Counted from the first letter of the stretch, positions 1-63,361 are shown. The stretch is 64,000 nt of DNA from Akkermansiaceae bacterium (GCA_903906515.1 CAIVKO010000233.1:102-64101), one strand, 5' to 3'. Notes: generated from the letters alone by a model not told the origin. Numbers and translations are program-made.

Positions 1-2
1 GC

Positions 3-966: not shown

Positions 967-1010
967 CCCCCGTTTGTGGGAATGGACAGACTCGTGGAGT
1001 CGGGTAGATT
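967..1010 (+). promoter_or_regulatory. Conserved box plus putative -35/-10 promoter, copy 1 (upstream of the GH95 operon)
   Basis: CCCCCGTTTGTGGG-AA-TGGACA-N16-TAGATT. The same geometry occurs at 26090, 39040 (minus strand) and 39130. Confidence 0.72.
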
Positions 1011-16940: not shown

Positions 16941-18389
16941 ATGACTCATAAACTGTTATCGGGATTGGCCATTTTGTGTTTTGCAACAACGGCGTCTGCC
17001 GATGTGACGGTGAACGGTTTGTTCGCGGATCACATGGTTCTCCAGCGGGAGATGCCGGTGGCGGTCTACGGCAAGGCTGACCCGGGGGAGAAAGTCAGCG
17101 TCGCCTTCGCCGGCCAGGAGAAATCCGTGATCACTGACAAGGTCGGTTGCTGGAGCGTCAAGCTGGATGCGTTGAAGACGTCAACAAACTCCGCCACCCT
17201 GACGGTATCCGGAAAGAACAAGGTGACGATCAATGATGTGGTCGTTGGTGACGTCTGGGTTTGCAGCGGCCAGTCCAACATGGAATTTCTACTGGGTCAT
17301 TGCGGCAGGCCAGACGACGTCAAGGATGCGAATTTTCCGCTGCTGCGCCAATTCGATGTGCCTAGCAATTATGCCGGTAGAATTCAGACTGATGTTAAGG
17401 GTAACTGGGTGAATTGCACTCTCCAGACGGCTGGAAATTTTACAGCTGTCGGTTATTATTTCGCCCGCAAAATACACAGCGAAACCGGTATTCCCATCGG
17501 TCTGATCAGGAGCGTAGCGAGTGGGAGGTCGATTGAGCCATTCTGCTCCGCCGATGGGTTGGCTTCCATTTCCGAACTCGCGGGAAACAAGGCCAAACTC
17601 GATGTATCCGGGGAGCCCGAAATCGGTCCTTGCTCCTGGCATTGTATGTATAATGGCATGATTCACCCCCTGGTTAACTTCCGGATCAAAGGGGCGCTCT
17701 TCTATCAGGGCGAAACCAACGGCAGTGAAGAAGACGGATATTATCACAAAATGCGCGCGCTGATCGGGGGGTGGCGGAAAGCATGGAACCAGGGCGACTT
17801 CCCGTTCTACTTCGTCCAGCTTCCCAATTATAGCAATCCGGACAACAAACCGGAAGGTGGTGATGGTTGGGCCAAAACCCGCATGGGCCAGTTTAAGGCG
17901 CTTTCAATCCCCAACACTGGCATGGCCGTAGCCATCGAATTGGCCAACGTCGGCAACCCTGGCGATGTTCATCCGCAGAACAAGCGGGACGTCGGTGAAC
18001 GGTTGGCGCTCTGGGCGCTCGCCAAAAATTACGGCAAGAAAGATCTCGTGTACAGCGGCCCGTTGTATAAGGGAATCAAGGTTGAAGGAAGCAAGATCCG
18101 TGTCGTTTTCGATAGCGTCGGTTCCGGCCTGACCGTGGCGACCAAAAAAGGCTATGATCCCGTGGTCAAGGAGCCGCAGGGCAAGCTGCAGAAGTTCGCG
18201 ATTGCCGGCGAGGACAAGAAATGGGTGTGGGCCGATGCCGTGATTGAGGGTAAGACGGTCGTGGTTTCCAGTCCGGCAGTGCCCAAGCCGGTTGCGGTGC
18301 GATATGCGTATTCGATCAACCCTGACGGTTGTAATCTCTATAACAACGAGGGGCTGCCGGCCTCTCCTTTCCGCACAGATGCGTGGTAG
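16941..18389 (+). CDS. SASA/DUF303 acetylesterase 2
   Basis: GDVWVCSGQSNME, FYQGETN and DVHPQNK. Close paralog of the gene at 12903. Alternative in-frame starts at 16902 and 16914. Confidence 0.88.
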   Translation: MTHKLLSGLAILCFATTASADVTVNGLFADHMVLQREMPVAVYGKADPGEKVSVAFAGQEKSVITDKVGCWSVKLDALKTSTNSATLTVSGKNKVTINDVVVGDVWVCSGQSNMEFLLGHCGRPDDVKDANFPLLRQFDVPSNYAGRIQTDVKGNWVNCTLQTAGNFTAVGYYFARKIHSETGIPIGLIRSVASGRSIEPFCSADGLASISELAGNKAKLDVSGEPEIGPCSWHCMYNGMIHPLVNFRIKGALFYQGETNGSEEDGYYHKMRALIGGWRKAWNQGDFPFYFVQLPNYSNPDNKPEGGDGWAKTRMGQFKALSIPNTGMAVAIELANVGNPGDVHPQNKRDVGERLALWALAKNYGKKDLVYSGPLYKGIKVEGSKIRVVFDSVGSGLTVATKKGYDPVVKEPQGKLQKFAIAGEDKKWVWADAVIEGKTVVVSSPAVPKPVAVRYAYSINPDGCNLYNNEGLPASPFRTDAW

Positions 18390-21400: not shown

Positions 21401-21702
21401 CCTTTGCCAAAGGGTTTGTGCAGACTCCGCGCGGCAAGGTCTCGTCGGAATGGCAGGTCACGGGAACTGATCTCTCTCTCACGGTGGCTATTCCCTTCAA
21501 TAGCCAAGCGGCGGTTAGTTTTCCCAAACCTGTCGGAGATCATGGAGTGATCTATGAAGGAAGAAACTTGATCTGGAAGAAGGGAGTTCTGCTGGCAAAA
21601 ACAGAAGGGATGGTGGGAGCCCGTGAAGATGGTAATTATATCCGTTTTGTCGTTGGCTCGGGAATTTACAGTTTTAACACCAAAAATCCGGAGGAGAAAT
21701 GA
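18421..21702 (+). CDS. NPCBM + GH78 alpha-L-rhamnosidase
   Basis: ATG 18421 (MKRNMSMAAVAVLG) is preferred over 18244, which overlaps the upstream gene. Motifs FDFGQNMAGW, PRFTYHGFR, PTDCCQRDERKGWLGD, GATTIWEFW and SWNHPMLG. Confidence 0.92.
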   Translation: MKRNMSMAAVAVLGCCAAAFGEETRLEDLANFELVENFEKPPLKDQAASWKPMQMAGEKFQHGLGTHAPFIAMIRLDGHTEKFHAVVGVNGLNKDRGSVEFIITGDGKVLFCSGVMKGDVMKDGKVVTPGDKPKVVDLNLSGVKRLKLEATTTGDNTWGDDADWADAVFTWKDVTPRIVEIVDDACESAAAVPPAGKSPDDTVYRADAAANSAASPGAKADQPRRKTGKNTVPVAPDRLAVEGVCEPMGIDNPAPVFSWSAAHAVRGQSQRGYQILVASSQKLIDADKGDVWSIQEKESAQQYAIVYAGPALASKARYWWKVRVWDADGNVSPYSLAATFETAMMNPADWQAQWVGGDFTRLRKEFTVEKSKTIAQARAYVSGQGYYELRINGKKVGDHVLDPGYTDYKFRALYSTYDITELLKPGANAVGVMLGDAYLIRWELKQPSDKMAVVQIEVRYTDNTTATLVTDPTWTGKNGGAMVSNSVYVGEVYDARLEDAWDMPGYAGTDWASVEVKTPPQIVNAQLQAIKVVDTMKPVKMSGKDGDNIFDFGQNMAGWLRVSASAPAGTVMKLDFGEGDWPASSQKDQYTFKGVGVETWEPRFTYHGFRTAKVSGVAGLTSDSVVACVVHSAVEPAGDFTCSSPLLNKIHRAFLWTQVNNMHSIPTDCCQRDERKGWLGDALVTTEAACMNLDMKAFMAKWFNDIQDYQDFRNTNGSVANIAPCPLGESWKSPYKGWEVWDIAWNSASVSIPWDLYMAYGDKVLLAKHYNMMRRFVEYVRTTSPNNICTTFKWGDWTGGPTEGLLLSTGYYYRSAELLSRTALELGKADDAEKYAQLAADIKAAFNKKWLRFDRYYNKNEQVSNALALSFDMVPPESKSAVLARLKQNIDYKDGHLTTGVVGTHCLMNALWRNEAVETAYTLANQTTQPSWGHMIEKGATTIWEFWDGHGSWNHPMLGGPIDAWFYKGVLGIYPTKPGYEELSIRPQIGGGLTFAKGFVQTPRGKVSSEWQVTGTDLSLTVAIPFNSQAAVSFPKPVGDHGVIYEGRNLIWKKGVLLAKTEGMVGAREDGNYIRFVVGSGIYSFNTKNPEEK

Positions 21703-21727
21703 TAAACCGTAACACGTTATTCAATCT

Positions 21728-24700
21728 ATGTCCTGCAAACAAACATATTTGATTCCGGCTGCGACCATTCGCGCTCAGCACCGGAATCGGATGCATCACA
21801 GTCCCAGCCGCGCGCGCTGCGGATTCGCGCTGGTCAGCACGCTCTCGCTGATGATCCTGCTCACGGTCATCGCAGTGGGCATGTTGACCCTCTCCTCGAT
21901 CACCTTACGTAGCTCCAGTCAGGGTCAAGCCATCGTGATGGCGCGAGCCAACGCCCGGCTCGGTCTGATGCTCGCGCTAGGCGAATTGCAATCCACTCTC
22001 GGCCCTGATAAACGAGTCTCTGCGCCCGCCGCAGCGGTGATTTCCTCCGCTAAGCAGCCGCACCTAACCGGCGCATGGGAGTCCTGGCGCTGGGATCCGG
22101 CTAAATCCTCCTCTCCGGCATACGTTGAAAAACGCACGAAATTCCTCCGTTGGCTCGTCTCCACCGTCAACCCTGTGGATGCCAAATTGTTTGCGCTGCC
22201 TGCGTCCGATCCGTCCGTGGATTCGGTGGAATTGATCGGTGCGCTCGGTCATATGAACGTGCCAAACTCGGTGCGTGCAGCAAAAATTCCGGTTATGAAT
22301 TCAGTGATCCCCGGCGCTCTGGCGTGGGCGGTTTTTGACGAGAGTGTCAAAGCTTCCATTGATCTGGGTGATCCGGCGACAAAACCGACCGCCGGGGTGG
22401 AGGTCGCCACTCGTAAAGCACCTAACCGATTTCGAGCGGATATCATCGATCCTGCGAAATTTGCAGCCTTGAAAACACCGGTCAACCTCGTCACGCTTGA
22501 AACCGCGGTGATCCCTAGTGGCCAGGATAGCGCGCCGGAATTCCGCAAGCGATTCCATGAATTTACCACCGGTTCGCTCGGCCTGCTAACCGATACCGCC
22601 AACGGCGGCCTGAAGACCGATCTCACAGCGCTTTTCGAGAGTGCTACATTTCCTACAAGCTCCTTTCCCACCGCCACGCCCTACTCAAACCTCGCGTCCG
22701 GAGCCCCGCGTTGGAGTTACCTCTACGACCATTATCGCAAATATAAAACCGTGACGGACGCCAATCTGGGCACCCCCACCTACGTCCCGTCCGCCACCGA
22801 ACTCGCACCTTCATTCGACGGGATGGACTACTCACCCCGGAAGGAACGCCTGCTACCCGTCATCGCCAAGATGCAACTCGTGTTCTCGATCGTCTCGCAC
22901 CACGCGAATATTAAGGACCGCATAAACTTTATGGACCAATACGGCGATCCCAAGGGCAATGACAACCATGCCGTGCCGCAGATTGTATACGAACCAGTCA
23001 TCACCCTTTTCAATCCCTACGACGTGGCGCTTGACCTCAAGAAACTGCGCATCCGCGTATGGGATCCGCCGGTTGGATTTCGCTTCGCCAAGGTCATGAG
23101 CGGGGCCGTGAATTGGTACCGCGATGAAATGACTAACGGCGAGTTTCACGGACTGGCACGATTCAATGATGTCAACGAGCGCAATACTGCCGCGCGCCGG
23201 TGGTTCACTCTCTATCTTACAGATGGCACCAGCCAAGCTGCAGGTAACGCGCTGCGGTTGCAACCCGGCGAGGTGAAGGTGTTCTCCAGTCGCGTCGAGA
23301 GCAACTGGAGTTGGTCCTACGAATGCGCTGATGAAAACGTACCTAGGTCGTTTTTTGACTGTAGGGTCAATAATAACTTCGGCAACATCGATAACCGCAC
23401 CAGCAACAAGCTGGGCGTGGAAGCTGTTCCCGGCTGGGATCCCCGCGCCGGTCTGCAAACCGACCACCTGAGTTATGGATTCCTGCGACCACCTGCAACC
23501 CTCTACGCATTCGAGAATGTGGCAGATTGGCGTTCGCCCAAGTGGGGTTTCGTATCTATCAGAATTACTGATGAAGTGCAGGTCGAACTCAAGGCTCTGC
23601 GGACGACTGCAATCAACAGCGGCGTGCCGGACTTCCAAGTGGACGTTCTGGCCGGTGAAAATGAGGACGTCACGCAGGACATCCTGCGCTCTTTCCGCTT
23701 CAACTTTGCCAACCCTACCGCAGAAATCAGTGAAAACCCAGCTAAACCAGTGATTTCGCGGAAATACCGGGTTGCTGACACTCTGCAGAAATGGACAGAA
23801 ACGGGCATCGGGGGCAAGAAGCCGCTCGCCATGCTGGAAATGACCGCTCGTACCACTCGCGACCCGCTGGACGACAGCAAGGCATGGGTTTATAATAATC
23901 CAGTGGTCGAAGGCGGCGAGCAGACCACCAGCGTTGTGGGAGCAGCTAACCAGAGTTACGATGTCAGGCTGATCGAGCTCACCGGTTGGTCCAGCTTCCC
24001 GATGATCGAATGGGACACGACGCTGGGTGCGGGGTACGGACGCGGTTACTTCGGGTCCAGTCGCAGTTCTAACGAAGGCGTGACCAATGTGCCGATGTGT
24101 CATGTGCCGGTGGCACCCGCCGCGTCTATCGGCGATCTAATCGCCACAAATCTGGTCTCCGGTGCTTCTCTGCCGCGCATCGTGCACCCGTTCGGCAATT
24201 CGCGCGCCCATCCGCTGCTCCCTGCGGCGCAAGTCTCTCGATTGCTCGGTGGCACGACTTTGCTCGATCATTCGTATTTACTCAATAATACGCTATGGGA
24301 TAGCTACTACTTCTCATCGTTGTCAGCATATGCTGGCGGGGTGTTCACATCCAATCTCACTCGGCGCATGGTGTTGGAAGGAGTTCTCGACGGTTCCAAA
24401 CCTGCGCTCAATACCCGCCTGAGGCCCGCGGTTATTCCCGGTGACGCTGCCCTGCTGGCCACGAAACTCGACACGCTCAGTGATGCGGATTTCGCCAAAA
24501 AGATCGCCGGATACATGGCCGTGGCCGGTCCTTTCAACCTGAATTCAACCTCTATCGACGCCTGGCGCTCGGTGTTGTCTTCACTGCGTGATCGTGAGGT
24601 CACCGTCTGGAAAAACCGTGCCACACCCAACCCGGACGCCACTCCTTTTGCGCGCATGGGACTTCCTCTCACCGGACCCACGGATACCAGCGCCAACGTC

Positions 24701-25324
24701 AATGTGCTTGGCCAAATTCGCTGGGCCGGCTATCGAAACCTTGATGACTTCCAAATCGAAGCTCTCGCCAAAGCCATAGTGACCGAAATTCAAAAACGCG
24801 GCAGCGAGGACCAGGCTCCATTGCTCACTCTAGCAGAATTTGTCAACCGCCGTCCTGGCGCAGTCGACGGTCTCCACAGCTTGGCTGGTATCCTGCAAAC
24901 CGCCATCGACTTATCCGGGGTGAACACCGTGAACCATGGCAAGGATTCGAAGCTGATTCAAAGCGCGGACATCGCCGTGGCCCGCAAGACCGGCACGGCA
25001 ACGCCCGAAGCCATGAACGGATTCACCGGCGAAGGCTCGCCTCCTATACTCACTCAAGGTGACCTGCTCGGTGCCTTGGCCCCCATTGCAACAGTCCGCG
25101 GCGATACTTTCAAGATCCGTGCATACGGCGAGACGACCTCCAGCACGGGCAGCGTTATTGCTAAGGCTTGGTGCGAGGCAGTGGTTCAACGGTTGCCGGA
25201 ATTCATCGACCCGGCGGACTCGCCTGAAACGCCCTTAGTTAAACTCATCCGGCCTACTAACCAATCCTTCGGCCGAAGCTTCCGCATTGTGTCATTCCAC
25301 TGGCTCAACGCCGGGGAAATATGA
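21728..25324 (+). CDS. Giant PilX/GspK-like prepilin protein (Verru_Chthon cassette protein A-like), copy 1
   Basis: Class III signal RARCG|FALVSTLSLMILLTVIAVG lacking Glu+5, then ARANARLGLMLALGELQ..GPDKRVSA. C-terminal motif VRGDTFKIRAYG...WCEAVVQR...FGRSFRIVSFHWL. The true start may be 21791. Confidence 0.8.
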   Translation: MSCKQTYLIPAATIRAQHRNRMHHSPSRARCGFALVSTLSLMILLTVIAVGMLTLSSITLRSSSQGQAIVMARANARLGLMLALGELQSTLGPDKRVSAPAAAVISSAKQPHLTGAWESWRWDPAKSSSPAYVEKRTKFLRWLVSTVNPVDAKLFALPASDPSVDSVELIGALGHMNVPNSVRAAKIPVMNSVIPGALAWAVFDESVKASIDLGDPATKPTAGVEVATRKAPNRFRADIIDPAKFAALKTPVNLVTLETAVIPSGQDSAPEFRKRFHEFTTGSLGLLTDTANGGLKTDLTALFESATFPTSSFPTATPYSNLASGAPRWSYLYDHYRKYKTVTDANLGTPTYVPSATELAPSFDGMDYSPRKERLLPVIAKMQLVFSIVSHHANIKDRINFMDQYGDPKGNDNHAVPQIVYEPVITLFNPYDVALDLKKLRIRVWDPPVGFRFAKVMSGAVNWYRDEMTNGEFHGLARFNDVNERNTAARRWFTLYLTDGTSQAAGNALRLQPGEVKVFSSRVESNWSWSYECADENVPRSFFDCRVNNNFGNIDNRTSNKLGVEAVPGWDPRAGLQTDHLSYGFLRPPATLYAFENVADWRSPKWGFVSIRITDEVQVELKALRTTAINSGVPDFQVDVLAGENEDVTQDILRSFRFNFANPTAEISENPAKPVISRKYRVADTLQKWTETGIGGKKPLAMLEMTARTTRDPLDDSKAWVYNNPVVEGGEQTTSVVGAANQSYDVRLIELTGWSSFPMIEWDTTLGAGYGRGYFGSSRSSNEGVTNVPMCHVPVAPAASIGDLIATNLVSGASLPRIVHPFGNSRAHPLLPAAQVSRLLGGTTLLDHSYLLNNTLWDSYYFSSLSAYAGGVFTSNLTRRMVLEGVLDGSKPALNTRLRPAVIPGDAALLATKLDTLSDADFAKKIAGYMAVAGPFNLNSTSIDAWRSVLSSLRDREVTVWKNRATPNPDATPFARMGLPLTGPTDTSANVNVLGQIRWAGYRNLDDFQIEALAKAIVTEIQKRGSEDQAPLLTLAEFVNRRPGAVDGLHSLAGILQTAIDLSGVNTVNHGKDSKLIQSADIAVARKTGTATPEAMNGFTGEGSPPILTQGDLLGALAPIATVRGDTFKIRAYGETTSSTGSVIAKAWCEAVVQRLPEFIDPADSPETPLVKLIRPTNQSFGRSFRIVSFHWLNAGEI

Positions 25325-25357
25325 TAAAACCCCGTAGCCTTTCATCCGTTATCTTCC

Positions 25358-26065
25358 ATGTCAGTTTACCCGATCATCGTTGTCGCTGTTCTAATGGCTA
25401 TGCTCCCGCCGTTGCACGCCCGTGAACAACCTGCCACACGCGCTGAAATCCGCCTGCTCGCCTTTCAACCCGACCTGGCTACTGACGAGGCCTACGTCCA
25501 CGACCCCGATGCGCCCGCCGAAACCGTGGCTATAAAAGTTTCTATCAAATCCTATCTGAATCACGAGTTTGACACCGTTATGCTCACCGGAAATCGGATC
25601 GTGATCACCACCAAGCCGGAGCGTGTCTCGATCACCCGCTCGAATGAAGTGTTAGGAATGGCCGATCTTCCGGATGGGGTGCGATCAGCCATTCTACTGT
25701 TTCTGCCGGCACCGCCCAACGGTAAGACCCGCTTCCATATCATGGTCATTGATGATTCAAAGCGCGCTTTCCCTGTTGGTTCGTTTCGCGTCTCCAACCT
25801 AAGCCCACTACCTGTGCGCATCGTGCTAGAGGAAAAATCCTACGATTTTAAGCCTGGGGAAGTCCAACTCATCACCGATCCGCCCGTGCGTGCGGGAAAA
25901 CAATCCGGCATGAAAGCCTTTGCTTTCCACGACAAGATCTGGCACCGCATCGGCTCGGGAATCTGGCCCGCGCCGGGCACTAACCGTGTCGTGCAAGTCT
26001 TGTACGGCAACACAGTCAAGGGGCAGGTGCAGCTCCGCGCCTTTGACGACGTCCCACCCCGCTAA
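25358..26065 (+). CDS. Small secreted hypothetical protein, partner of the PilX-like gene (copy 1)
   Basis: Signal peptide, 235 aa, beta-rich (LLFLP...VIDDSKRAFPVGSFRVSNLS). Distant homolog of the ORF at 63362 in the same position. Confidence 0.8.
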   Translation: MSVYPIIVVAVLMAMLPPLHAREQPATRAEIRLLAFQPDLATDEAYVHDPDAPAETVAIKVSIKSYLNHEFDTVMLTGNRIVITTKPERVSITRSNEVLGMADLPDGVRSAILLFLPAPPNGKTRFHIMVIDDSKRAFPVGSFRVSNLSPLPVRIVLEEKSYDFKPGEVQLITDPPVRAGKQSGMKAFAFHDKIWHRIGSGIWPAPGTNRVVQVLYGNTVKGQVQLRAFDDVPPR

Positions 26066-26089: not shown

Positions 26090-26133
26090 CCCCCATTTGT
26101 GGGGGTAGATATTACTGGAAAGATGGCTAGATT
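26090..26133 (+). promoter_or_regulatory. Conserved box plus putative -35/-10 promoter, copy 2 (upstream of GH29)
   Basis: CCCCCATTTGTGGG-GG-TAGATA-N16-TAGATT. Confidence 0.72.
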
Positions 26134-26204
26134 GAACTTTGTATCCGCTCGACAGAACTAACGTTATGACAATTTCAGGTTGTTATAAAAACCTAATAGG
26201 TGGG

Positions 26205-28019
26205 ATGAAAATAATGAAGAGAAATTATTCAATGATGGTTGCGGTAATACTGACGATTGGTTGGTGTCTTCCGAGTAATGCGGCCGATTGGGTCAGGGTA
26301 GCGTATGACGACGCGGGAGTGGATGGTGCTCAACCTCATCTTAAAAAGGCCGCTGATAACTGGAATGTTCCAAATTCCGAAGCATTCGATGAGGCTTTAC
26401 GGACGGTGGTTTACGGTCCATACATCTGGTTTGGATATGGCGGACTTAATACAAATGCCGCTTATAAGGCCAAACTTCGTTTCTTGTCTGATGGACCGCG
26501 GGTGATGCGTCTTAAGGCAGGTGATCTCACAGTAAAGGAGTCGGTAACAGCTGATGCTGGTAAGTCGTCAGAGTGCGTGATTGATATTCCTCCTGCTTCA
26601 TATTCGATGGGCACACTGGAACTTGCTCTAGAGGTGATTTCCGGAGGTAACGGAGGAATGGTTTCGGATATTGAAATACTCTCGACCGATCCCGCGCCGC
26701 TGGGAGTCTCGAAAGCGACAAACCCAGTCATTTTGACCGAACGCGGAGAAACTTTAGCGCAGCGGGATATGCGGCTGAAATGGTTCAGGGAAGCGAGATT
26801 CGGAATGTTCATCCATTGGGGACTGTATGCCCAGGCCGGTGGTGAGTGGAACGGGAAGCCTGTGGGCAACGAACACAATTTCGGTGAATGGATGATGTAT
26901 GATGCCAGAATTCCGATTGCCGAATATGCCACATTGGCGTCAAAGTTTAACCCGGTGAATTACAATGCCGAAAAGTGGGTGCTCGCAGCAAAGACCGCCG
27001 GTATGAAGTATGTGGTTATCACGACGAAGCACCACGAAGGCTTCGCCATGTTCAAGACGAACGCCAGCCCGTTCAATATTATTGATGCAACGCCTTACAA
27101 GCATGATCCGATGAAGGAACTTGCCGTCGCATGCCGCAAACACGGCATGAAGCTCGGCTTCTATTATTCGCAGAACCTGGATTGGCATCATCCCGGCGGC
27201 GGCGGGAATGACTGGGATAAGACCCATGAAGGTGATGCGGACCAGTATGTTGATAAAATTGTGATCCCGCAGGTCCGTGAGATTTTGAGCAATTATGGTG
27301 ATATTGCGGTGATCTGGTGGGATATCCCGGGCGGGGCTATTAATAAGGCGAGGGCTGATCGTATTTTAAAGACAGTGATGGAGCTTCAGCCAAAGATCAT
27401 TATGAATAACCGATTGGGCGGAGACTATTGGGGCGATACAGAGACCCCTGAGCAGTTTATTCCAGCCACTGGATTTTCGGGGCGAGACTGGGAAACCTGT
27501 ATGACGATGAATGGGACATGGGGGTTCAAGAAGAACGACCATAATTGGAAATCAGTTGAGACGATTGTCCAAATGCTTTGCGATATTTCCAGTAAGGGCG
27601 GAAACTATCTGCTGAATGTAGGCCCGACAGACAAAGGCGAGATTCCGCAAGAGAGTCTGGACCGATTGGTAGAGGTTGGTAAATGGATGAAGGTAAACGG
27701 AGAGGCTATTTATGGGACGTCAGCCAGTCCATTCCCACAGGGTGTGCCATGGGGACGCGTCACGCAGAAGGGTAATATGCTTTACCTGATGGTCTTTGAT
27801 CTGCCGATTGATCGTGTGCTGACACTTCCAGGATTTTCAAAGAAGGTAATTAAAGCCTGGTTTCTAGATAATGAAAACAAGGCTGAGATCAATATCTCCA
27901 GCGATGGACGGGAACTCAAATTGATCGTTCCTAATGGTGTTGTCATCAACTCTCCGGCGACAGTAATCGCTCTGCAATTGGCGGCTAAGGAGGATATGGG
28001 TGAAAATACAGCCAAGTGA
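26205..28019 (+). CDS. GH29 alpha-L-fucosidase with an N-terminal accessory beta-sandwich domain
   Basis: WFREARFGMFIHWGLYA, TTKHHEGF, IWWDIPG, WETCMTMNGTWG and NYLLNVGP. The start could be 26166, 26205 or 26214. Confidence 0.92.
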   Translation: MKIMKRNYSMMVAVILTIGWCLPSNAADWVRVAYDDAGVDGAQPHLKKAADNWNVPNSEAFDEALRTVVYGPYIWFGYGGLNTNAAYKAKLRFLSDGPRVMRLKAGDLTVKESVTADAGKSSECVIDIPPASYSMGTLELALEVISGGNGGMVSDIEILSTDPAPLGVSKATNPVILTERGETLAQRDMRLKWFREARFGMFIHWGLYAQAGGEWNGKPVGNEHNFGEWMMYDARIPIAEYATLASKFNPVNYNAEKWVLAAKTAGMKYVVITTKHHEGFAMFKTNASPFNIIDATPYKHDPMKELAVACRKHGMKLGFYYSQNLDWHHPGGGGNDWDKTHEGDADQYVDKIVIPQVREILSNYGDIAVIWWDIPGGAINKARADRILKTVMELQPKIIMNNRLGGDYWGDTETPEQFIPATGFSGRDWETCMTMNGTWGFKKNDHNWKSVETIVQMLCDISSKGGNYLLNVGPTDKGEIPQESLDRLVEVGKWMKVNGEAIYGTSASPFPQGVPWGRVTQKGNMLYLMVFDLPIDRVLTLPGFSKKVIKAWFLDNENKAEINISSDGRELKLIVPNGVVINSPATVIALQLAAKEDMGENTAK

Positions 28020-28569: not shown

Positions 28570-29703
28570 TTACCTCAAACTTTTCCAATCGCGTGGACAA
28601 CACCCCTCGTGGCGAAGAAATATGCGGTTCATCGTGCGTGACGTTCCGAATCCGCAGGCGGAAACCAGATCCTTGATTTGTGGTGATCCGTTCCCTAACA
28701 TTATTTTTGCCTTGGACATGCGCTCGCGTAATAGGAAATCAGCGGGGGTGCACCTGAGTTCGGATCGGTAAAGGTGATAGACCGATCGGGCAGACATTCC
28801 CATGATGGCAGCAAGCTGTTCCATGTCGAAGGGCTTCTCCAAACTTATCCTGAGGTGATCAATCCCCCGCAGCAGGGCCGGATGGGTTACTGCAAGGGCC
28901 TCGGAACTCTGCCGCACCACCAACCCCAGTGGAGGAATGACCACTGATGAAGTAGGAGGTTTAGCACCAGCCATCAGTCGATCCAATAGCATCGCGCCGG
29001 CGATCGCTACTGCGTCGGGCGCGTTGTCGATGCTGGTGATCGGCACCGGAGATGTTTCGCTGGCAAGCTCGATATTACCGACGCCAACCACCGCCAGATC
29101 CCGTGGAACATTGATGCCGCATTCAATGCTCATCTCAACCGCTTCCGCCGCAAGTTGGTCGTCCATGGCGAATAAAGCGACCGGTTTTTCCAAGGCGGCC
29201 AGGTGCTTGGCCAGCCATTTTCTTCGTCGCATCCATTCGCCCTTGCCGCCCTTGCCGCGGTATTCGAGGGTCAGGCAGTCACAACCGTGGCGTGCGAGAG
29301 TATCCCGGAAACCGGAAAGACGTTCGGCGGCAACGACACCGGGTGCTGAAGTCCACCAAACAAAACGCCGGTGGCCCATTGCGAGCAAATGTTCCGCAGC
29401 CATGCGTCCCGCGGCTACATTGTCCTCGTGAACATGGGCCGTGATTTTGATCCGGGGTCGGTTGCGCTCAATCAACACCGTGGGCTGACGTGGTGCCTGG
29501 GATTTCATAAAACGAAGCACATCCATCCGCCTAGGATCCGAGACGAGCATGCCGTCTCCCGACCAACCGGCAGGCAGTGCATCGTCGAAGAAATGCCGGG
29601 TCTCAAGCAACCATCCGAACTGGCGTGCATGGCGGGCCAGCGCCAACAGTGTCCGGGGATCATGCCATCCTAACAATACAAGAACCCTGCGTTTTATTTT
29701 CAT
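28570..29703 (-). CDS. XylR-type transcriptional regulator (LacI-like sugar-binding domain + AraC HTH)
   Basis: N-terminal VHEDNVAAGRMAAEHL, LFAMDD, VVGVGN and ITSID. C-terminal AraC HTH MEQLAAIMGMSARSV...ACGFGTSRTMNRIF. Confidence 0.88.
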   Translation of the reverse strand: MKIKRRVLVLLGWHDPRTLLALARHARQFGWLLETRHFFDDALPAGWSGDGMLVSDPRRMDVLRFMKSQAPRQPTVLIERNRPRIKITAHVHEDNVAAGRMAAEHLLAMGHRRFVWWTSAPGVVAAERLSGFRDTLARHGCDCLTLEYRGKGGKGEWMRRRKWLAKHLAALEKPVALFAMDDQLAAEAVEMSIECGINVPRDLAVVGVGNIELASETSPVPITSIDNAPDAVAIAGAMLLDRLMAGAKPPTSSVVIPPLGLVVRQSSEALAVTHPALLRGIDHLRISLEKPFDMEQLAAIMGMSARSVYHLYRSELRCTPADFLLRERMSKAKIMLGNGSPQIKDLVSACGFGTSRTMNRIFLRHEGCCPRDWKSLR

Positions 29704-29816
29704 GAAAGTGCGGATTTGGTCATTGCAGTAATTGTCTTCTTTTTATTGTAAATGTCTATCGCTAATATCACGTTCTTATGGTGAAATCATCATGAAACCA
29801 GACCGTTGTTGTGATC

Positions 29817-32228
29817 ATGTCGTCATTCAGTGAATCCCATATCCGCGAAATACTCGTCGTTCATCACAGTCACATGGACGTCGGCTATACACATTCGCAG
29901 CCGGTTTTCTGGGAGTTGCAATCCGAGTATATTTTCCAGGTGCTCGACTGGCTGGAGGAAGCGACCGATCTTCCCAACGACTCTCGGCCGAAATGGACTT
30001 GTGAGGCGAGCGAACCGCTACGTCGTTGGCTGGCCAAGGCTTCTGAGACGGATGTAGCGAGGTTCGTCAAACTACACCATCAGGGGAGTATCGGTGTGTC
30101 TGCTTTGCGTTGGCACACCACTCCACTGGCCGACCGTGCGGGACTGGAGCGTCTGCTCGCTGGAAAAGTTGAATTGGAATGTCTGTTAGAAACTAAGATT
30201 CAGGTGGCATGTCAGCACGATGTAACGGGGGTTCCGTGGCCGCTTGCGGATGTGCTGCTCGATGCGGGCGTGGATTTTTTCATCATGGCCATCAACATTC
30301 ATTTGGGTCGCGCGGTGAAACCGAGACCCGGAATGTTCATGTGGGAAGCTCCATCGGGTCGCTTTCTGCGCGTTTTTAATGGTAACCATTACACGATGTT
30401 CGACCAATTGCTCCATGCGTGGGACGATTCCGTCGATAGCATGAAAGAGGGCTGGAATATCTATCAAAAACGCCTGAAGGAGTTGGATTATCCCATGGAT
30501 TTCGTTTATCTCACCTCAACCTGCTCACCGGTGATGTGGGATAATGCTCCGCCAAATCCCTTCATGCCGGATTTGATCCGTCGTTGGAATGAAGCAGGCT
30601 GCGGTCCTCGGATCCGCTATTCGACCTTTGCTGACCTGCGCGAGCGTGCCATGCGCGTGCCGAGCGAGCCATTGCCGGTGATGCGCGGAGACTGGACAGA
30701 CTATTGGAACTTTGGCTGTGCCGCTAGCCCGATCGCCACCGCACGCAACCAGCAGGCGAAATCACTGATCGATGCAGCATCCATATTAAATGGGCATGCT
30801 GTTTCCATGGATGCAGCGATGGGCAAGGTGGACCTTTATGACGAACATACCTGCGGATACTACGATTCAGATCACGCACACCCGCAGTCACAGACCACCG
30901 AAATGCTGAAACAGGCTCTCGCCCACGAAGGTCATGAACTTGCTGCGTTCGCCTTGATGGACGGGCTGGAGCGGCTGGCGCAAAACCCATCGGCCGACAA
31001 AGGCATCGATAGTGTCCTGTTCGTTAACCCCGGCCTGGAAGCGGTGACAATGAGTGTTGAACTTCCGTCCAACTGGTTTGAAGCGGCGGATGGTCGCACC
31101 TACCGAGCGAGTCGAATGTTTTACGACGGACGCTCGTGGGGCGAGCGGTTTCCGGGATTGAATGCTCGCGCGTTCGGACAGGTTCACTTGCCACCACTTT
31201 CGTGGAAATCCATACCTCTGGCCAATCTGCCGCCAGTTGCACCCCCCACGGTATTTCATCAGATCGATGTGGACGCGTCAGCCCGCCGCGAGCTCAACTT
31301 TGCGCCGGCTTCGAACCATAAGCGCCGCACTGGATACATTACCTCGCCGTTCCACCGCCTAAGCTATGATCCGGATTCCGGGCGGATTATCAGTCTGACT
31401 GATCACACGCAGGACCGTGAGGTGCTGGCACAGCGCGATGGGTTGGATCTATTCAGCTTCGTTCGTGAGCGAGCCGATGCCTTGAATGAGGATCGGCGTT
31501 ACGCATTCTACCAGCGTGATCTGAACAAAGAGAAGGTGGATGAGATGTGCTGGCAGGATTGGGTGCCGGTGCGAGAACGCGCTACCCGCGTCAAACGCTG
31601 CGATATCGTGGTTGGCAACAATCGTATCACGCTGGTTCGTGAGTTGGAGGCACCCGGCATGTTGTTTCTATCCCAGAAGATCACGTTTTCTGCAGATGAT
31701 CCGGTGATTCGGATCGAGGTGGAAATGGAATTGATTCCGGACTCTTCGCCACAAGCGGTGTATTTCGCGATCCCGCTGAAAATGAACTCGGGATGGCAGG
31801 CGATGTTTGATACAGCAGGTGTCGCAGTGCGCATGGATGATGACCAGTTGCCTGGTGCCTGCCGCAACTGGGTCACTTCTGAGGCGTTTGCCGCCATGTG
31901 GGACAAGCGTGGCGGTGTGGCATTGTTTACGCCTGACGCACCGATGATCCAGTTCGGTGATTTTCACTTCGGGCGTCCGCTTGAAAAACTTCCTCGTCCA
32001 CGAAACCCGTTGTTGCTAGCATGGCCGGTCAATAACTACTGGGATACCAATTTTCCCCGAGTGCAGGGCGGTCGCATCCGGCTGTGTTTCGGTCTCCATA
32101 CCTTCGGCGGTCCTGCGGATACTCAGGTAATAAAGGCTCTTTCGCGTAAATTCCGACAACCTTCTTTGTTATGGCCGATCACACGCAACGGTAGGAAAGC
32201 AGGAGAGGGCGGTCTTCTATCATCATAA
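29817..32228 (+). CDS. Cytoplasmic GH38-like (GH38/57 N-terminal barrel) glycoside hydrolase
   Basis: VVHHSHMDVGYTH (HxD metal motif), HDVTGVPW, GDWTDYWNFG, LYDEHTCG and NNYWDTNF. No signal peptide. A GTG start at 29811 is also possible. Confidence 0.75.
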   Translation: MSSFSESHIREILVVHHSHMDVGYTHSQPVFWELQSEYIFQVLDWLEEATDLPNDSRPKWTCEASEPLRRWLAKASETDVARFVKLHHQGSIGVSALRWHTTPLADRAGLERLLAGKVELECLLETKIQVACQHDVTGVPWPLADVLLDAGVDFFIMAINIHLGRAVKPRPGMFMWEAPSGRFLRVFNGNHYTMFDQLLHAWDDSVDSMKEGWNIYQKRLKELDYPMDFVYLTSTCSPVMWDNAPPNPFMPDLIRRWNEAGCGPRIRYSTFADLRERAMRVPSEPLPVMRGDWTDYWNFGCAASPIATARNQQAKSLIDAASILNGHAVSMDAAMGKVDLYDEHTCGYYDSDHAHPQSQTTEMLKQALAHEGHELAAFALMDGLERLAQNPSADKGIDSVLFVNPGLEAVTMSVELPSNWFEAADGRTYRASRMFYDGRSWGERFPGLNARAFGQVHLPPLSWKSIPLANLPPVAPPTVFHQIDVDASARRELNFAPASNHKRRTGYITSPFHRLSYDPDSGRIISLTDHTQDREVLAQRDGLDLFSFVRERADALNEDRRYAFYQRDLNKEKVDEMCWQDWVPVRERATRVKRCDIVVGNNRITLVRELEAPGMLFLSQKITFSADDPVIRIEVEMELIPDSSPQAVYFAIPLKMNSGWQAMFDTAGVAVRMDDDQLPGACRNWVTSEAFAAMWDKRGGVALFTPDAPMIQFGDFHFGRPLEKLPRPRNPLLLAWPVNNYWDTNFPRVQGGRIRLCFGLHTFGGPADTQVIKALSRKFRQPSLLWPITRNGRKAGEGGLLSS

Positions 32229-32244
32229 TTAATCCAATCCTAAC

Positions 32245-34083
32245 ATGTATTTTATTGACTGGTTGATTGTGACCATTTTCTTCCTCGTCGTCGTAGGCGC
32301 GGGTTTTGTATTCTCACGCAAAAGCGCGGAGAGTTCTAAATCGTATTTCCTTGGAGCGGAGAATAAGTGGTGGATGCTGGCCGCATCCGGAGCCTCCACG
32401 AATTTTTCCATCAACGGCACGGTATGGAATCTTGCGATACTGATGGTGCTGGGCATGAAATCGTTCTGGGTCACGCTGGTGTGGTGGATGCCAAACGCGG
32501 TATTCCTCATGGCGTATTCGGGCATTTGGATCCGCCGTTGCGGTGGCATCACTTCGGCAGAACTCAATCGGATCCGCTTCGGAGTCGGGACAGGGGCGAA
32601 GTGGGCACGCACGAGTTTCGCCTTTATGATCACGTTGTTTTCCGTGGCCTCTTTGTGCATGTCCTATATCATCGTTCACAAGTTTGCGGTGGTGTTCGGA
32701 CTGCCTAACAATAATGCACACGGTCTGGCCTTGGGCATCGTGGCCGTCACCAGTGTGTATGTGTTGTTCGGAGGTTTCAAAGGAGTGATCCTGAGTGAGT
32801 TTCTGCAAACAGTGGTGTTATTCGCGGTGGCATTCATCGTCGGGTTTGTCTGTTACAAACAATATTCCGCAGACCAGATCCATGCGGCGGTGACACACGG
32901 AGTCGGTGCGTCTGCGGTGAATCCAGATTACTGGAAATCACTGATGCCAGAGGCCATGCCTCGAATCGGAATGTTTGTCGCTTCAGAGGGGTACAAAGGT
33001 TGGCAGGACTTTATTGGTGCGACTCTCGCATTTTCCATCGTCGGCATGATAGGCTGTGTCGGTGGGGCAGGTGGAAGATATGGAGAACAGCGCTTCCTCG
33101 CTACGACGAATGTGAAGGAAGCCGCAAAGCTAGCGGCGTTGTGGCAGTTTCTCGGCTTTCCACGGTGGATTATGACGGCGGGTTTGTGTTTTCTCGGATA
33201 CGCGGTCTATTCTGCGGACATCGCACACGACCCGGAATGCGTGATGCCGAAATTCCTCCTGTCGGGCCTGCTTGCTCCGGGTTTGTTAGGTTTAGTTGTT
33301 GCCGGGCTTTCCGCCTCTTTCATGACAAGTTTCTGTTCGGAGATCAACGCCTGCGCGTCGATCATCGTCCGTGATATTTATCAGCCATTGATCGCCCCGC
33401 ATGTGTCGGATTCGGATCGGAAGCTGGTCAGGGTGAGCTACTTGGTGACCGGTTTTCTTGCGTTGTTGGCAGCGATCATTGGATATGCCATGGTGGAATC
33501 CCAGGCGCGAGGCGGCGGCAGTGCTCTCAACGTGATCTGGGCTTGGATGCTCGGGGGCTTGCTGACATGTTTTGTAGTGCCACTGGCCTTCCGTTGGTAT
33601 TGGGGCAGGATGAACGGTTGGGGTTTTGCTGCGGGATGTTTGTTCAGTTTGGTGCCTTCACTAGCCATGTTGGTGCGGGCGTTTGTCCCGGATGGAAATA
33701 TTTTAAAAGTCTGGCCGGAAGACCACTACACATATGCAACACTCGCCACCTCCACGCTGGCGTGCGTGCTGGTTTCGTGGATCACACCGCCGATCGAGGA
33801 TGAAACCACAACGGCATTCTATGCGCGGGTGCGTCCATTCGGCCTTTGGAGGGACGCTGCCGCCAAGGCGAGATTGGCTGGAATTCCCATGGCGACCGCA
33901 ATTCCTTTGCCGCGGATCATTGTCAATGTGGTGCTCGGTCTGATCGCCTCATTCTCCCTCTACATGGCACCGGTCTATTATCTCGGACATTGGAATTCTG
34001 AAGGGACGCTTTGTTCTGTCATCTTTGTGGTATGTTGCTGCGGACTGTATTTCACCTGGTACCGCACTCTCCCGGAGGATTAG
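32245..34083 (+). CDS. Sodium:solute symporter (SSS family), probable sugar/oligosaccharide importer
   Basis: Many TM helices. Motifs YFLGAENKWWMLAASGAS, YVLFGGFKGVILSEFLQ, SASFMTS..SEINACASIIVRDIY and WYWGRMNGWG. Confidence 0.92.
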   Translation: MYFIDWLIVTIFFLVVVGAGFVFSRKSAESSKSYFLGAENKWWMLAASGASTNFSINGTVWNLAILMVLGMKSFWVTLVWWMPNAVFLMAYSGIWIRRCGGITSAELNRIRFGVGTGAKWARTSFAFMITLFSVASLCMSYIIVHKFAVVFGLPNNNAHGLALGIVAVTSVYVLFGGFKGVILSEFLQTVVLFAVAFIVGFVCYKQYSADQIHAAVTHGVGASAVNPDYWKSLMPEAMPRIGMFVASEGYKGWQDFIGATLAFSIVGMIGCVGGAGGRYGEQRFLATTNVKEAAKLAALWQFLGFPRWIMTAGLCFLGYAVYSADIAHDPECVMPKFLLSGLLAPGLLGLVVAGLSASFMTSFCSEINACASIIVRDIYQPLIAPHVSDSDRKLVRVSYLVTGFLALLAAIIGYAMVESQARGGGSALNVIWAWMLGGLLTCFVVPLAFRWYWGRMNGWGFAAGCLFSLVPSLAMLVRAFVPDGNILKVWPEDHYTYATLATSTLACVLVSWITPPIEDETTTAFYARVRPFGLWRDAAAKARLAGIPMATAIPLPRIIVNVVLGLIASFSLYMAPVYYLGHWNSEGTLCSVIFVVCCCGLYFTWYRTLPED

Positions 34084-35511: not shown

Positions 35512-38500
35512 TTATTTTGTGGCCACGAGACGAGCGAAGCGTTTGGTCTTGCCGCCGAACGGAATGTGGGCAACGACGTCGTTCAGACCGTTAGAATCAG
35601 GGCCGGTGACCACGAAGTTCACACCGCCGTCCTGTCCACTGGTGGCAGGGACCGGGATGGAAGTCGTCCAAGAGCCGGCACTGAGGTCATCACTGAGTTC
35701 GAGATGGAGTTGCGCCGGTGTCATGGCATCTACGCGCTTGAAATGCAGGACCAACTCGCTGCCACTGGCCTGGCTGGCGGGTAGCAACCCGGGGGTGTCG
35801 AGGGACGAATGGGTCGGAGAACCAAGAATCCATGCCATGCCGTAGGCCACACCCTCGCTGTTGAGAGAATCGAAGGCATGGCCGCCAGCCCAGCTCGTAA
35901 ACGAACCGCCGCCAGCGGCTAGCGACAATGTTTTGCCATCACCCGACACTTGGAATTGGCTGAAGGTGGCTGTCGCGCCATCAATGCGTATGTTGCCCGC
36001 TGCGACATACGCCTGATAGTCGGCCGCTCCCTTGCCGGTGATCGTCAGGGTGGCTGTGCTGCCGGATGCGAAGGTGATGTAGCCTGAGCCGAAGGTGTAA
36101 TTACCGGCGTAGCCAATCTTGCCTGCGGTCAGACTGGCGTTGCCCGAGAGCTCAACATGACCCCAGCCCCCATAACTCCCGAACGTCAGACTGCCGATGT
36201 TCGCCACCGCGTTGTCGGTCATGGTCATTTTGGATCCATTATACCCCTGTATGCTAAAGGTGTAGACACTACTGGCGCCGTTGAGGCTAGTCGCGTTGAA
36301 AGAGGCATCGCCGGACATGTTGTAAACACCCCAGCCATTAGGATTCTCACCAATCCCGAAATTACCATATTGACCGGTAATCGTGATGGAACCACCCGTC
36401 TGATTCAGAATCGCGCCGGCAGTATTATATTTGCCAACCATGAAGCTGTTGTTTTGAGGTATCACGTATTTGCCGGTGATGGTCGTGGTCGTGTTTCCAG
36501 ACGGCACCAGATTGCCCGTGATGATGTCAGTATAGGTCGCGGTGATGGTATGATTCGACCCCACGTTGCTGAACGTGTAATTGGTCGCCGGAACAACATT
36601 TACCCCATCCACCGTGAGCGTATTCACATGATAACCCAGGGCAGGCGTGATGGAATAGATTTGGTTGTCATAGTAATTGAGGGTCGTGACACCACTCGGA
36701 GTAATCGATCCGTTGGGGCTTTGGGTGGCGGTTATGGTGACGGTGGTGCCGGGCGCGAAGGTCGCGGTGATGGTATGGTTTGTCGTCACGTTGACGAATG
36801 CGTAACTGGTCGCCGGAGGCGTAACCGGGACATCATCCACCGTGAGCGTGGCGACATGATAGCCCGGGTCAGGCGTGACAGAGTAGGTGGTCGTGCTGCC
36901 GAAAGTCACCGGATTCGCGCCGGGCGGAGTGATCGTACCGTTGGTGCTTTGGGTGGCGAGGATAGTTGGGTTGGCTACCACGGGTGCAAGCGACAACGTG
37001 CTGCCCGACAATAGGAACTGGCTGATTGTCGCTGAAGCGCCATCAATGCGTATGTTGCCTGCGGCGACATACGCCTGATAGTCCGCCAACCCCTTGCCGG
37101 TGATCGTCAGGGTGGCTGTGCTGCCGGATGCGAAGGTGATGTAGCCTGAGCCGAAGGTGTAATTACCGGCGTAGCCAATCTTGCCTGCGGTCAGACTGGC
37201 GTTTCCCGAGAGTTCAACATGACCCCAGCCCCCATAACTCCCGAACGTCAGACTGCCGATGTTCGCTACCGCATTGTCGGTCATGGTCATTTTGGATCCA
37301 TTATACCCCTGTATGCTAAAGGTATAGACACTACTGGCGCCGTTGAGGCTAGTCGCGTTGAAAGAGGCATCGCCGGACATGTTGTAAACACCCCAGCCAT
37401 TAGGATTCTCACCAATTCCGAAATTACCATATTGACCGGTAATCGTGATGGAACCACCCGTCTGATTCAGAATCGCACCGGCAGTATTATATTTGCCAAT
37501 CCAGAAAAGTTGGTTCTCACCGATTATGTGAGAATCCCATTTACCCACGGTCGTGGTCGTGCTTCCTGGAGGGATAAAATTACCGGAAATCACGATTACA
37601 CCTACATTGAACGGACTGGAGGTCGCCCCTGTCAGTAAACTAGTGCTGGCGGCCAACGTTAAGCCATTCCCTACCGTCGTGGGTTTGAGATTGCTGAACG
37701 TCGCCACACCGTTGACGGCTCTCACGGTGAGGGTGCTGTCTGAAGAGATTGTTCCGCTGACCGTCACATCGGTAATGTTATCGCCGGTCACGGTATTGCC
37801 GTCGGCATCTTGCACCAACACCGTCACAGCCGGGCTGATCACTGAATCAGGCCTCGTGTTGCTCGGTTGGACGCCAAACGCCAACTTGCTGGCGGGTCCC
37901 GGATTGTTGGTCTGGGTGGAGTTGACCGAACTGGCGGCATAAGTGCCATCGCCGACATAGACCGCCCGGATGGTATGAATACCCGTCGCGAGGGTGCTGT
38001 CGGTATAGGCGGCTACCCCGCCGGAAACGTCCACAAAGGCCTTCGCTACGCCGTCCACGGAAAAGACGACCTTGCCGCTTGCCCCTGTCGCAATGACGTC
38101 GTTGGTTTTAACCGTCGCCGTGAAAACAACGTCCTGGTGATAGACGGACGGGTTGACCGAAGAGTTCAGTGTGGTGGTAGTGACAATTCCGGTCGTGTTT
38201 GTATTGAGCGCCTCATTCCAGACCTGTGCGATCTTCTGGTAACCGACCGCATTGGGATGCAAGCCGCCGACGTCCAAGTCCGTGGCGATATTCATCGCCT
38301 CATACATGGGAACGTAAACCACGTTCCGGCCAAGGGCCTGGTGGCTGGCCACGATGCCCGGGATGGTGGCGTTGTAGGCCTGCACGTCGGTCTGATGTCC
38401 GACTATGGGTGGGATCGACGCCACGTAGAGTTTCACACTTGGCCGGTAGCCATAGATGTGGTCGATAAGAACACTCAGGCGAGCCGGGGCGTTGGCCACG

Positions 38501-38996: not shown

Positions 38997-39040
38997 AATT
39001 TACCTGATTACACGAGTCTGTCCATACCCACAAACGGGGG
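38997..39040 (-). promoter_or_regulatory. Conserved box plus putative -35/-10 promoter, copy 3 (drives the minus-strand SGNH surface protein)
   Basis: Reverse complement reads CCCCCGTTTGTGGG-TA-TGGACA-N16-TAAATT. Confidence 0.72.
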
Positions 39041-39129: not shown

Positions 39130-39173
39130 CCCCCCTTTGTGGGGGTAGGCAGACTCAGAAATCCGGATACATT
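39130..39173 (+). promoter_or_regulatory. Conserved box plus putative -35/-10 promoter, copy 4 (upstream of the second large operon)
   Basis: CCCCCCTTTGTGGG-GG-TAGGCA-N16-TACATT. Confidence 0.72.
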
Positions 39174-58117: not shown

Positions 58118-58132
58118 AAGGTCTAAACCACA

Positions 58133-59929: not shown

Positions 59930-59936
59930 TAAGTCC

Positions 59937-63353: not shown

Positions 63354-63361
63354 CAAAATTT

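Follow-up and report, generated by a model that had tools for sequence, protein, structure and literature searches.

A widespread two-gene cassette of Verrucomicrobiales encodes a giant protein with a K-class pilin-type N-terminus and a secreted partner

In type IV filaments, the K subunit, which lacks the glutamate at position +5 (Glu5), caps the tip formed by H, I, J, and K, and modular pilins can bear lectin modules (PMC9934059). At the tip, such pilins expose the effector modules grafted onto them (PMC9934059, PMC8179133), and PilC of Streptococcus sanguinis binds glycans (PMC8179133, PMC9934059). For the SusCD-independent capture and import of complex fucose- and rhamnose-rich polysaccharides by Verrucomicrobiota, a type IV-like pilus has recently emerged as a candidate (PMC13174399). 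Its locus, Akkermansia mucin utilization locus 2 (MUL2), is conserved throughout Akkermansiaceae, Haloferula and Luteolibacter among them, and the pilus has been proposed to attach cells to fucose-rich glycans (PMC13174399). In addition, a PulG-like pseudopilin with 67 paralogs is found in a verrucomicrobial alginate cluster, and the genes of this cluster make up the majority of those over-expressed on alginate (PMC13274419). Here, a pair of genes, A and B, is described in a 64,000-nucleotide stretch of DNA from an Akkermansiaceae bacterium (GCA_903906515.1 CAIVKO010000233.1:102-64101), hereafter the window. One copy of the pair, A1–B1, follows eight genes for carbohydrate-active enzymes (CAZymes), and a second copy, A2–B2, follows another CAZyme operon. 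Read in the light of the K subunit and modular pilin principles (PMC9934059, PMC8179133) and of the MUL2 report (PMC13174399), A is best read as a possible K-class modular minor pilin, i.e., of the class of the capping subunit GspK (K) without Glu5, which together with its own secreted partner would cap a type IV filament whose genes lie elsewhere; a probability of roughly 0.45 is assigned to this reading.

In A1, a basic leader (...RARCG, followed by FALVSTLSLMILLTVIAVG) ends in the class III cleavage motif G/FALVS between Gly32 and Phe33, and A2 shows the same arrangement (...RKAG, followed by FTLVVTLTLVILLT) with the motif G/FTLVV and Val at +5. Past Phe33 lies a hydrophobic stretch, and the AlphaFold2 model predicts a continuous helix of approximately 58 residues (34–91). 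The motif is a trait of the whole family, as G-F-[AST]-L occurs within the first 90 residues in 218 of 259 full-length relatives, with Phe at +1 in 213, Val, Ile or Ala at +5 in 202, and Glu at +5 in one. The median leader of the A family has 16.5 residues, and Gly32 and Phe33 are at least 95% conserved in a 78-sequence alignment of relatives. A thereby shows the N-terminal hallmarks of the type IV pilin superfamily: its leader is short, basic and Gly-terminated, the residue at +1 is hydrophobic, and a hydrophobic stretch of ~20 residues and a long α1 helix follow. As in GspK, the class III signal is without Glu5 and the α1 helix is of the GspK type.

In a profile–profile comparison (hhalign) with a purpose-built 44-sequence GspK alignment, residues 28–91 of A align with residues 3–66 of GspK at a probability of 93.8% (E 1.7e-7). 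Library hidden Markov models (HMMs) respond to the same segment: PilX_N (PF14341) scores 19.9 bits on A2, below the gathering threshold of 25.5, and gives sub-threshold matches in 20 of 33 A-family members (best E 7e-4), while NCBIfam returns weak matches to GspK and TIGR02600, and to TadE in one relative. Some A-family members are annotated by JGI as PulG or PilV. Homology to GspK, PilX_N, and the N-terminus of TIGR02600 is confined to residues 1–91. Because the family-wide motif, the library HMMs, and the hhalign comparison with GspK agree, the pilin-type, Glu5-less K-class N-terminus is considered real, and the original prediction of a class III signal of the PilX/GspK type without Glu5 holds in this respect.

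Two family assignments were examined and rejected. The original prediction linked A to Verru_Chthon cassette A (TIGR02600), but A1 reaches 15.6 bits and A2 18.8 bits where the cut-off is 332.3, and the matches are confined to model positions 1–59. Seven distant A relatives follow the same pattern, the scores overall ranging from 15.6 to 27 bits; no cassette B, C, or D prepilin genes lie alongside, and no published papers were found under the name Verru_Chthon. The proposed membership in GspK fared no better (NF037980, 17.7 bits against a cut-off of 130), with a body probability below 6% and no match to T2SSK (PF03934/PF21687) in 33 A-family members at E≤5. According to the window annotation and motif scan, A is also not encoded with GspH, GspI, and GspJ in an operon of a type II secretion system (T2SS).

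The pairing with B is conserved far beyond the window. The A profile retrieves 3,186 cluster representatives (50% identity) at E≤1e-30, and a scan of species-representative genomes yielded more than 554 relatives; among 150 matches listed, almost all are 1,100–1,370 amino acids long, and the shorter ones cover part of the profile. B lies directly downstream of A in 68 of 76 fetched loci. Five of the eight exceptions are contig ends, so that the pair, anticipated from the window, is kept in 68 of 71 testable loci, with A–B gaps of 8–134 bp. In several loci, a second A gene lies within 20 kb of the first, and individual genomes carry two or three. These counts, together with the multiple A copies, identify A–B as a near-obligate, paralog-rich cassette. 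Within the window, A1 and A2 share 29% identity over the full length (E 2e-94); B1 and B2 are nearly unalignable pairwise (E 0.04), and B2 matches the B-family HMM at E 1.6e-7. The A–B family is very large and unannotated, and its A proteins would be modular K-type minor pilins with a structurally novel body. Every named homolog source belongs to Verrucomicrobiota, including Akkermansiaceae, Haloferula, Luteolibacter, and Prosthecobacter; the window DNA is of Verrucomicrobiales, and the DNA sequencing runs containing window sequence are lake-water metagenomes.

B1 bears a Sec-type signal peptide (MSVYPIIVVAVLMAMLPPLHA, cut before REQ) without a lipobox, in agreement with the Sec-exported partner first proposed. 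The model of B (pLDDT 88.7) consists of two tandem immunoglobulin (Ig)-like β-sandwiches, and B has no Pfam match and no PDB sequence match. The sole significant Foldseek neighbours are the two-lobed extracellular domains of PepT1/PepT2 (E 4e-8, TM ~0.5), which are functionally uninformative. A PapD-like two-Ig-domain chaperone was considered for B and set aside; since Foldseek returned the PepT1/2 domain only and no chaperone, B is labelled simply as two Ig-like domains.

The AlphaFold2 model of A1 has a pLDDT of 79.6 and a pTM of 0.80. The α1 helix is followed by a beta-rich region (residues 96–230), a disordered linker (235–281), and a large beta-rich region (378–760). Behind it lie a coil-rich part (~816–863), a helical part (905–1075) with FNLNSTS..AW, and three long strands (1127–1193). 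In the 78-sequence alignment, conservation peaks at residues 41–120, 921–960, 1001–1040, and 1121–1198 and is lower over 121–760; distant relatives match best in the C-terminal ~500 residues. Both patterns suggest a conserved core and a more variable front half. The coil-rich part contains conserved His/Asp/Asn motifs, VHPFGNSRAHPL and LDHSYLLN..LWD..YFSS, in which several residues, among them H820, D847, H848, N853, and D858, are invariant or at least 90% conserved (H820 below 95% in the wider 78-sequence alignment). Its sequence suggests a putative metal-binding or catalytic site, with no match to known families. The top Foldseek matches of A (leukocidins, the CPE C-terminal domain, and a porphyran CBM at E>1) are insignificant and were not used. 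The A-family profile against PDB sequences gave a chance Hsp70 match only (E 0.11), and an alignment of A residues 1112–1137 in the C-terminal region with GspK residues 273–298 (hhalign, probability 2.5–3.6%) was rejected as evidence.

The coordinates of the features are collected in Table 1. The CAZyme genes of operon 1 are spaced by 15–53 bp, and no terminator-like hairpin occurs between GH78, A1, and B1 or after B1. Coordinates, spacing, and hairpin scan thus agree with the original description of eight CAZyme genes followed closely by two further open reading frames (ORFs). The spacing points to co-transcription of A–B with the CAZyme genes. A palindromic motif of the form CCCC-N-TTTGTGGG, with the core CCCCCATTTGTGGGGG, is found four times in the window against 0.38 expected, and four or more copies arose in none of 100 shuffles. 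All copies are intergenic and lie solely upstream of four CAZyme transcription units, and the divergent pair is kept in the closest relative (L086, 16962–16974 on the minus strand and 17065–17077 on the plus strand). The palindrome probably serves a single regulon as an operator or promoter element. Since one copy stands in the gap behind B1, the GH29 gene is probably a separate unit of the same regulon, and A1–B1 would therefore close operon 1. The claim that the pair also ends the second operon stands in that A2–B2 follow operon 2; the end itself is not visible, as the window stops inside B2.

Table 1. Features of the window and their positions, counted from its first nucleotide.
Feature	Position	Strand	Remarks
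Fragment of repeat-rich surface protein	1–857	+	C-terminal piece
Palindromic motif	968–980	+	Upstream of operon 1
Operon 1 including A1–B1	1132–26065	+	
Operon 1, CAZyme part	1132–21702	+	Eight genes: GH95; GH127-like; NPCBM+GH78-like+GH43; GDSL+NPCBM; SASA; NPCBM+GLAA-B/beta-helix; SASA; NPCBM+GH78 (Pfam scan, spacing, signal peptides)
Promoter-like match	21674–21703		Weak (9/12), just before A1
GH78–A1 gap	21703–21727	+	25 bp, no terminator-like hairpin
A1	21728–25324	+	1198 aa, ORF verified
A1 class III-type signal and α1 segment	21728–22000	+	Residues 1–91 (HMM, hhalign)
A1 G32–F33 cleavage-type motif	21821–21826	+	Ser at +5
A1 coil-rich part	~24173–24316		Residues 816–863
A1–B1 gap	25325–25357	+	33 bp
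B1	25358–26065	+	235 aa, ORF verified
Palindromic motif	26091–26103	+	CCCCATTTGTGGG, within the 73-bp B1–GH29 gap
GH29 gene	26139–28019	+	73 bp downstream of B1
XylR/AraC-like gene	28570–29703	−	
GH38-like and SSF genes	29811–34083	+	
GDSL gene	35512–38922	−	Divergent from operon 2
Palindromic motif, two copies	39027–39039; 39131–39143	−; +	Divergent intergenic region, GDSL gene/operon 2
Operon 2	39179–59929	+	Ten genes: GH95-like; unknown 418 aa; NPCBM+GH27; GH2+F5/8C; NPCBM+GH29+F5/8C; SASA; GH95-like; melibiase-like; GH2; unknown 598 aa (Pfam scan)
418-aa protein	41522–42778	+	Signal peptide, no Pfam match
598-aa protein	58133–59929	+	Signal peptide, no Pfam match; stops 7 bp ahead of A2
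A2	59937–63353	+	1138 aa, paralog of A1; starts 7 bp past preceding ORF
B2	63362–64000	+	Sec signal peptide, divergent B homolog; 8 bp past A2; cut by window end

In the signal-peptide check, all enzymes of both operons have a Sec signal peptide without a lipobox. The TTG start listed for the GH78 ORF at 18244 overlaps the preceding gene by 146 bp; the start is likely the ATG at 18421 (MKRNMSMAAV...), as the gap is then 31 bp, like those in the rest of operon 1. One accessory domain, NPCBM/NEW2, is used with unusual uniformity, being joined to six different catalytic proteins: GH78-like/GH43, a GDSL esterase, GLAA-B, and GH78 in operon 1 (genes at 7046, 10903, 14520, and 18244), and GH27 and GH29 in operon 2 (42823 and 47378). 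The XylR/AraC-like gene is a candidate regulator of the motif-bearing regulon. Beside it lie genes for a GH38-like protein without a signal peptide and a sodium:solute symporter (SSF), which probably represent the cytoplasmic and uptake end of the pathway. The surface protein fragment at the window start has a PEP-CTERM sorting signal, VPEPGAALIGGLGLLALLRRRR, at its end and no Pfam match. GC skew is negative over both A–B cassettes (22001–26000 and 56001–64000) and positive over the CAZyme genes. Relative to the enzymes, A contains more Ser, Thr, and Pro but less Gly and Glu; A1 is additionally enriched in Ala and depleted in Lys. The shift could stem from amino-acid composition or from the cassettes having an origin of their own.

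A1–B1 and A2–B2 are two copies of an autonomous two-gene cassette widespread in Verrucomicrobiales. If A is a capping K-class minor pilin, it would be made with a short basic leader and inserted into the inner membrane by the hydrophobic α1 segment, and a prepilin peptidase probably cuts at the conserved Gly/Phe. Because it lacks Glu5 and possesses a head of ~1,100 residues, A may be incorporated as the first, capping subunit of the filament, which could be a pilus of the type IV (T4P) kind, such as the MUL2 pilus, or a T2SS pseudopilus, encoded elsewhere in the genome. B, exported through Sec, would bind A in the periplasm as a stabiliser, a chaperone, or a co-tip subunit. In the lake lineage, two operons belonging to one CAZyme regulon each appear to have gained a divergent cassette at the 3' end; by this position, the tip would be made together with the secreted fucosidase, rhamnosidase, galactosidase, and esterase sets. 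The polysaccharide or particle under attack is probably what the tip would tether the cell or the filament to. With a cap-type pilin N-terminus and a secreted partner, the A–B family offers a concrete candidate for the specificity-giving end of a filament.

Several observations weigh against this proposal. Past residue ~91, A shows no homology, and the hhalign probability of its body against GspK falls short of 6%; the body holds no Pfam or NCBIfam domain and no detectable carbohydrate-binding module (CBM) or lectin domain. Whole-chain Foldseek of the A model against the PDB and BFVD gave nothing significant (best E 0.05, TM <0.1). No pilin globular fold was seen, in a search that could hardly detect a discontinuous pilin core, and the pilin fold with an inserted domain expected for A is unproven, the confident model having found no fold match. 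According to annotation and motif scan, filament machinery and other pilins are absent from the window and, as a rule, from the surroundings of related cassettes; canonical Glu5 class III ORFs are likewise missing from it and rare near related cassettes, consistent with the earlier remark that no B-, C-, or D-type pilins occur there. No RNA sequencing runs containing window sequence were found. A gene on the same strand lies within 150 bp upstream of just 15 of the 64 cassettes, and most cassettes appear to be independent units.

As for genomic context, a 91% ortholog keeps the order GH78, A, B with unchanged spacing; the 80% ortholog adjoins a regulator and giant surface proteins, not CAZymes, the 62–70% orthologs adjoin MatE, HZS_alpha, SprT-like, Ldh, and cytochrome-type genes, and a 48% relative adjoins a ribosomal protein operon. 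Giant repeat proteins with PATR (passenger-associated-transport-repeat) are the commonest upstream neighbours (9 of 63), and ~5 upstream genes are firmly glycan-active. Downstream (n=62), ~8 are glycan-active, comprising two GH39, two sulfatases, GH95, GH88, GH43, and a pectate lyase. Glycan-active genes thereby account for at least ~13 of 125 flanking genes (~10%), a lower bound since the tally was taken from the 25 commonest families, and a figure without a genome-wide baseline for comparison. Of 769 neighbouring ORFs, 13 (in 8 of 80 loci) are homologs of the CAZyme families of the window, and such homologs are not concentrated at the flanks relative to the wider 10 kb. Co-directional CAZyme adjacency is met in unrelated clades, with A–B ahead of GH95 and GH2+NPCBM (L064) or of a CBM4_9 protein (L046), and behind GH127 (L005) or GH95 (L013). 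In L074 (13613–20450), the genes behind the cassette encode an unknown 1032-aa protein and a sensor kinase that bears Reg_prop and Y_Y_Y domains, a sensor type that hybrid two-component regulators in polysaccharide loci typically have; in L087, two small ORFs upstream of A are uninformative. The CAZyme link clearly does not hold for the A–B family in general. A modest CAZyme enrichment around the cassettes is possible, as is a role of A–B in glycan capture.

The absence of pilin or GspK similarity in the body of A, of pilin partners and machinery nearby, and the many housekeeping contexts of the cassettes would also suit a membrane-anchored component of a periplasmic complex without a filament role, in which the N-terminal segment serves as an uncleaved signal-anchor. 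A and periplasmic B would then form an envelope complex, handling, for example, imported glycans or surface proteins, and the MUL genes have been described as encoding pili and periplasmic protein complexes (PMC12418764). However, the near-invariant Gly-Phe just ahead of the hydrophobic stretch, the short basic leader, and the ~58-residue helix homologous to GspK are characteristic of a class III signal rather than of a generic anchor, and this explanation is regarded as unlikely, if worth keeping in mind.

A–B could instead act as a T2SS cargo adaptor, i.e., an alternative pseudopilus tip pushing exoproteins through the secretin, with paralogs for each cargo set, namely the co-encoded Sec-exported CAZymes here and giant PATR surface proteins elsewhere. 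Given their Sec signal peptides without a lipobox, the enzymes need a second step out of the periplasm; PATR giants lead the upstream neighbours elsewhere, and the best-supported N-terminal homology is to the T2SS tip subunit. Furthermore, for an alginate-degrading verrucomicrobium with a PulG-like pseudopilin gene in its induced alginate cluster, alginase export through a T2SS has been proposed (PMC13274419). Nevertheless, A is accompanied by no GspH-, GspI-, or GspJ-like genes, its body bears no relation to that of GspK, an obvious exoprotein neighbour is missing beside many cassettes, and cargo recognition by pseudopilus tips this large lacks direct evidence, which leaves this adaptor role rather improbable.

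That each A–B is an interchangeable, substrate-specific glycan-binding tip with a SusD-like role for its own enzyme set is highly doubtful, for although two CAZyme operons of a single regulon each terminate in a divergent cassette, the middle region of A is more variable than its core, CAZyme adjacency recurs sporadically in other clades, and lectin-bearing modular pilins provide a precedent (PMC9934059), the 62–80% orthologs have no CAZyme link, operon coupling to the upstream gene and glycan-active flanks are as infrequent as given above, the latter against no genome baseline, and neither a CBM or lectin nor anything with a SusD-like domain or fold turned up. Of the original prediction, substrate-specific glycan-capturing tips are weakly supported by where the cassettes sit in the operons of this lineage and by isolated cases elsewhere; the proposed link to enzyme sets is not general, and nothing resembling SusD was found. 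The wider picture is equally hard to credit, in which thousands of interchangeable giant caps, each with a secreted partner, would share one filament and lend it different specificities, some of them wired, in lineages such as this one, into polysaccharide regulons as a SusCD-independent counterpart of SusD for glycan capture or enzyme delivery. Should the glycan link fail, the reading of A as a capping K-class minor pilin would still leave a large new class of K-type modular pilins.

Among known systems, K subunits of the GspK/PilX type resemble A in the class III signal without Glu5, the homologous N-terminal helix, the status of bulkiest subunit type, and the expected place as filament cap. 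In E. coli GspK, an N-x-N-(S/T) helix motif is followed by a C-terminal β-hairpin in the same order as in A, a likeness drawn by eye and without statistical support. Unlike GspK, mature A is ~4 times larger, has neither T2SSK nor SAM-like domains, with the body probability stated above, lies outside any gsp/pil operon and without H, I, and J, and is paired with a non-pilin secreted protein. Verru_Chthon cassette A (TIGR02600) comes from the same phylum, is of similar length (1296 model positions), and has the N-terminal ~59 residues in common with A, but nothing matches beyond position 59, and the partner of A is a Sec-exported Ig-like protein. PilB and PilC of Streptococcus sanguinis (PMC8179133, PMC9934059) are alike in concept, with a pilin N-terminal module and a large grafted effector at the tip. 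Their vWA or ConA-like lectin modules can be readily identified, and their genes stand among those for the other pilins, whereas A has no recognisable module and lies away from any pilus locus.

The PilY1/PilC tip adhesins are ~1,100-aa effectors at a pilus tip, as A would be. PilY1 is a non-pilin with a Sec signal and a beta-propeller, whereas A has a pilin-type N-terminus and no Pfam match. In the type IVb pili, CofB–CofJ and TcpB–TcpF each combine a large minor pilin with a Sec-exported soluble protein, encoded beside it, that is bound or exported. Those pairs have no sequence or fold relation to A–B and lie inside complete pilus operons. With SusD, only the proposed role is shared, i.e., substrate capture for co-regulated enzymes, and there is no similarity in sequence, domain, or fold. 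SusD itself, a TPR-like lipoprotein, forms a pair with SusC, and genes of this kind are absent from the window; B is Ig-like without a lipobox, and A, B, and their neighbours gave no SusD-like Pfam matches. The MUL2 pilus (amuc_1099–1102; PMC13174399) occupies a separate locus and consists of different proteins, with no A–B/MUL2 link reported. It occurs in the same bacterial family, its proposed attachment of cells to fucose-rich glycans does not involve SusCD, and it could be the filament that A caps.

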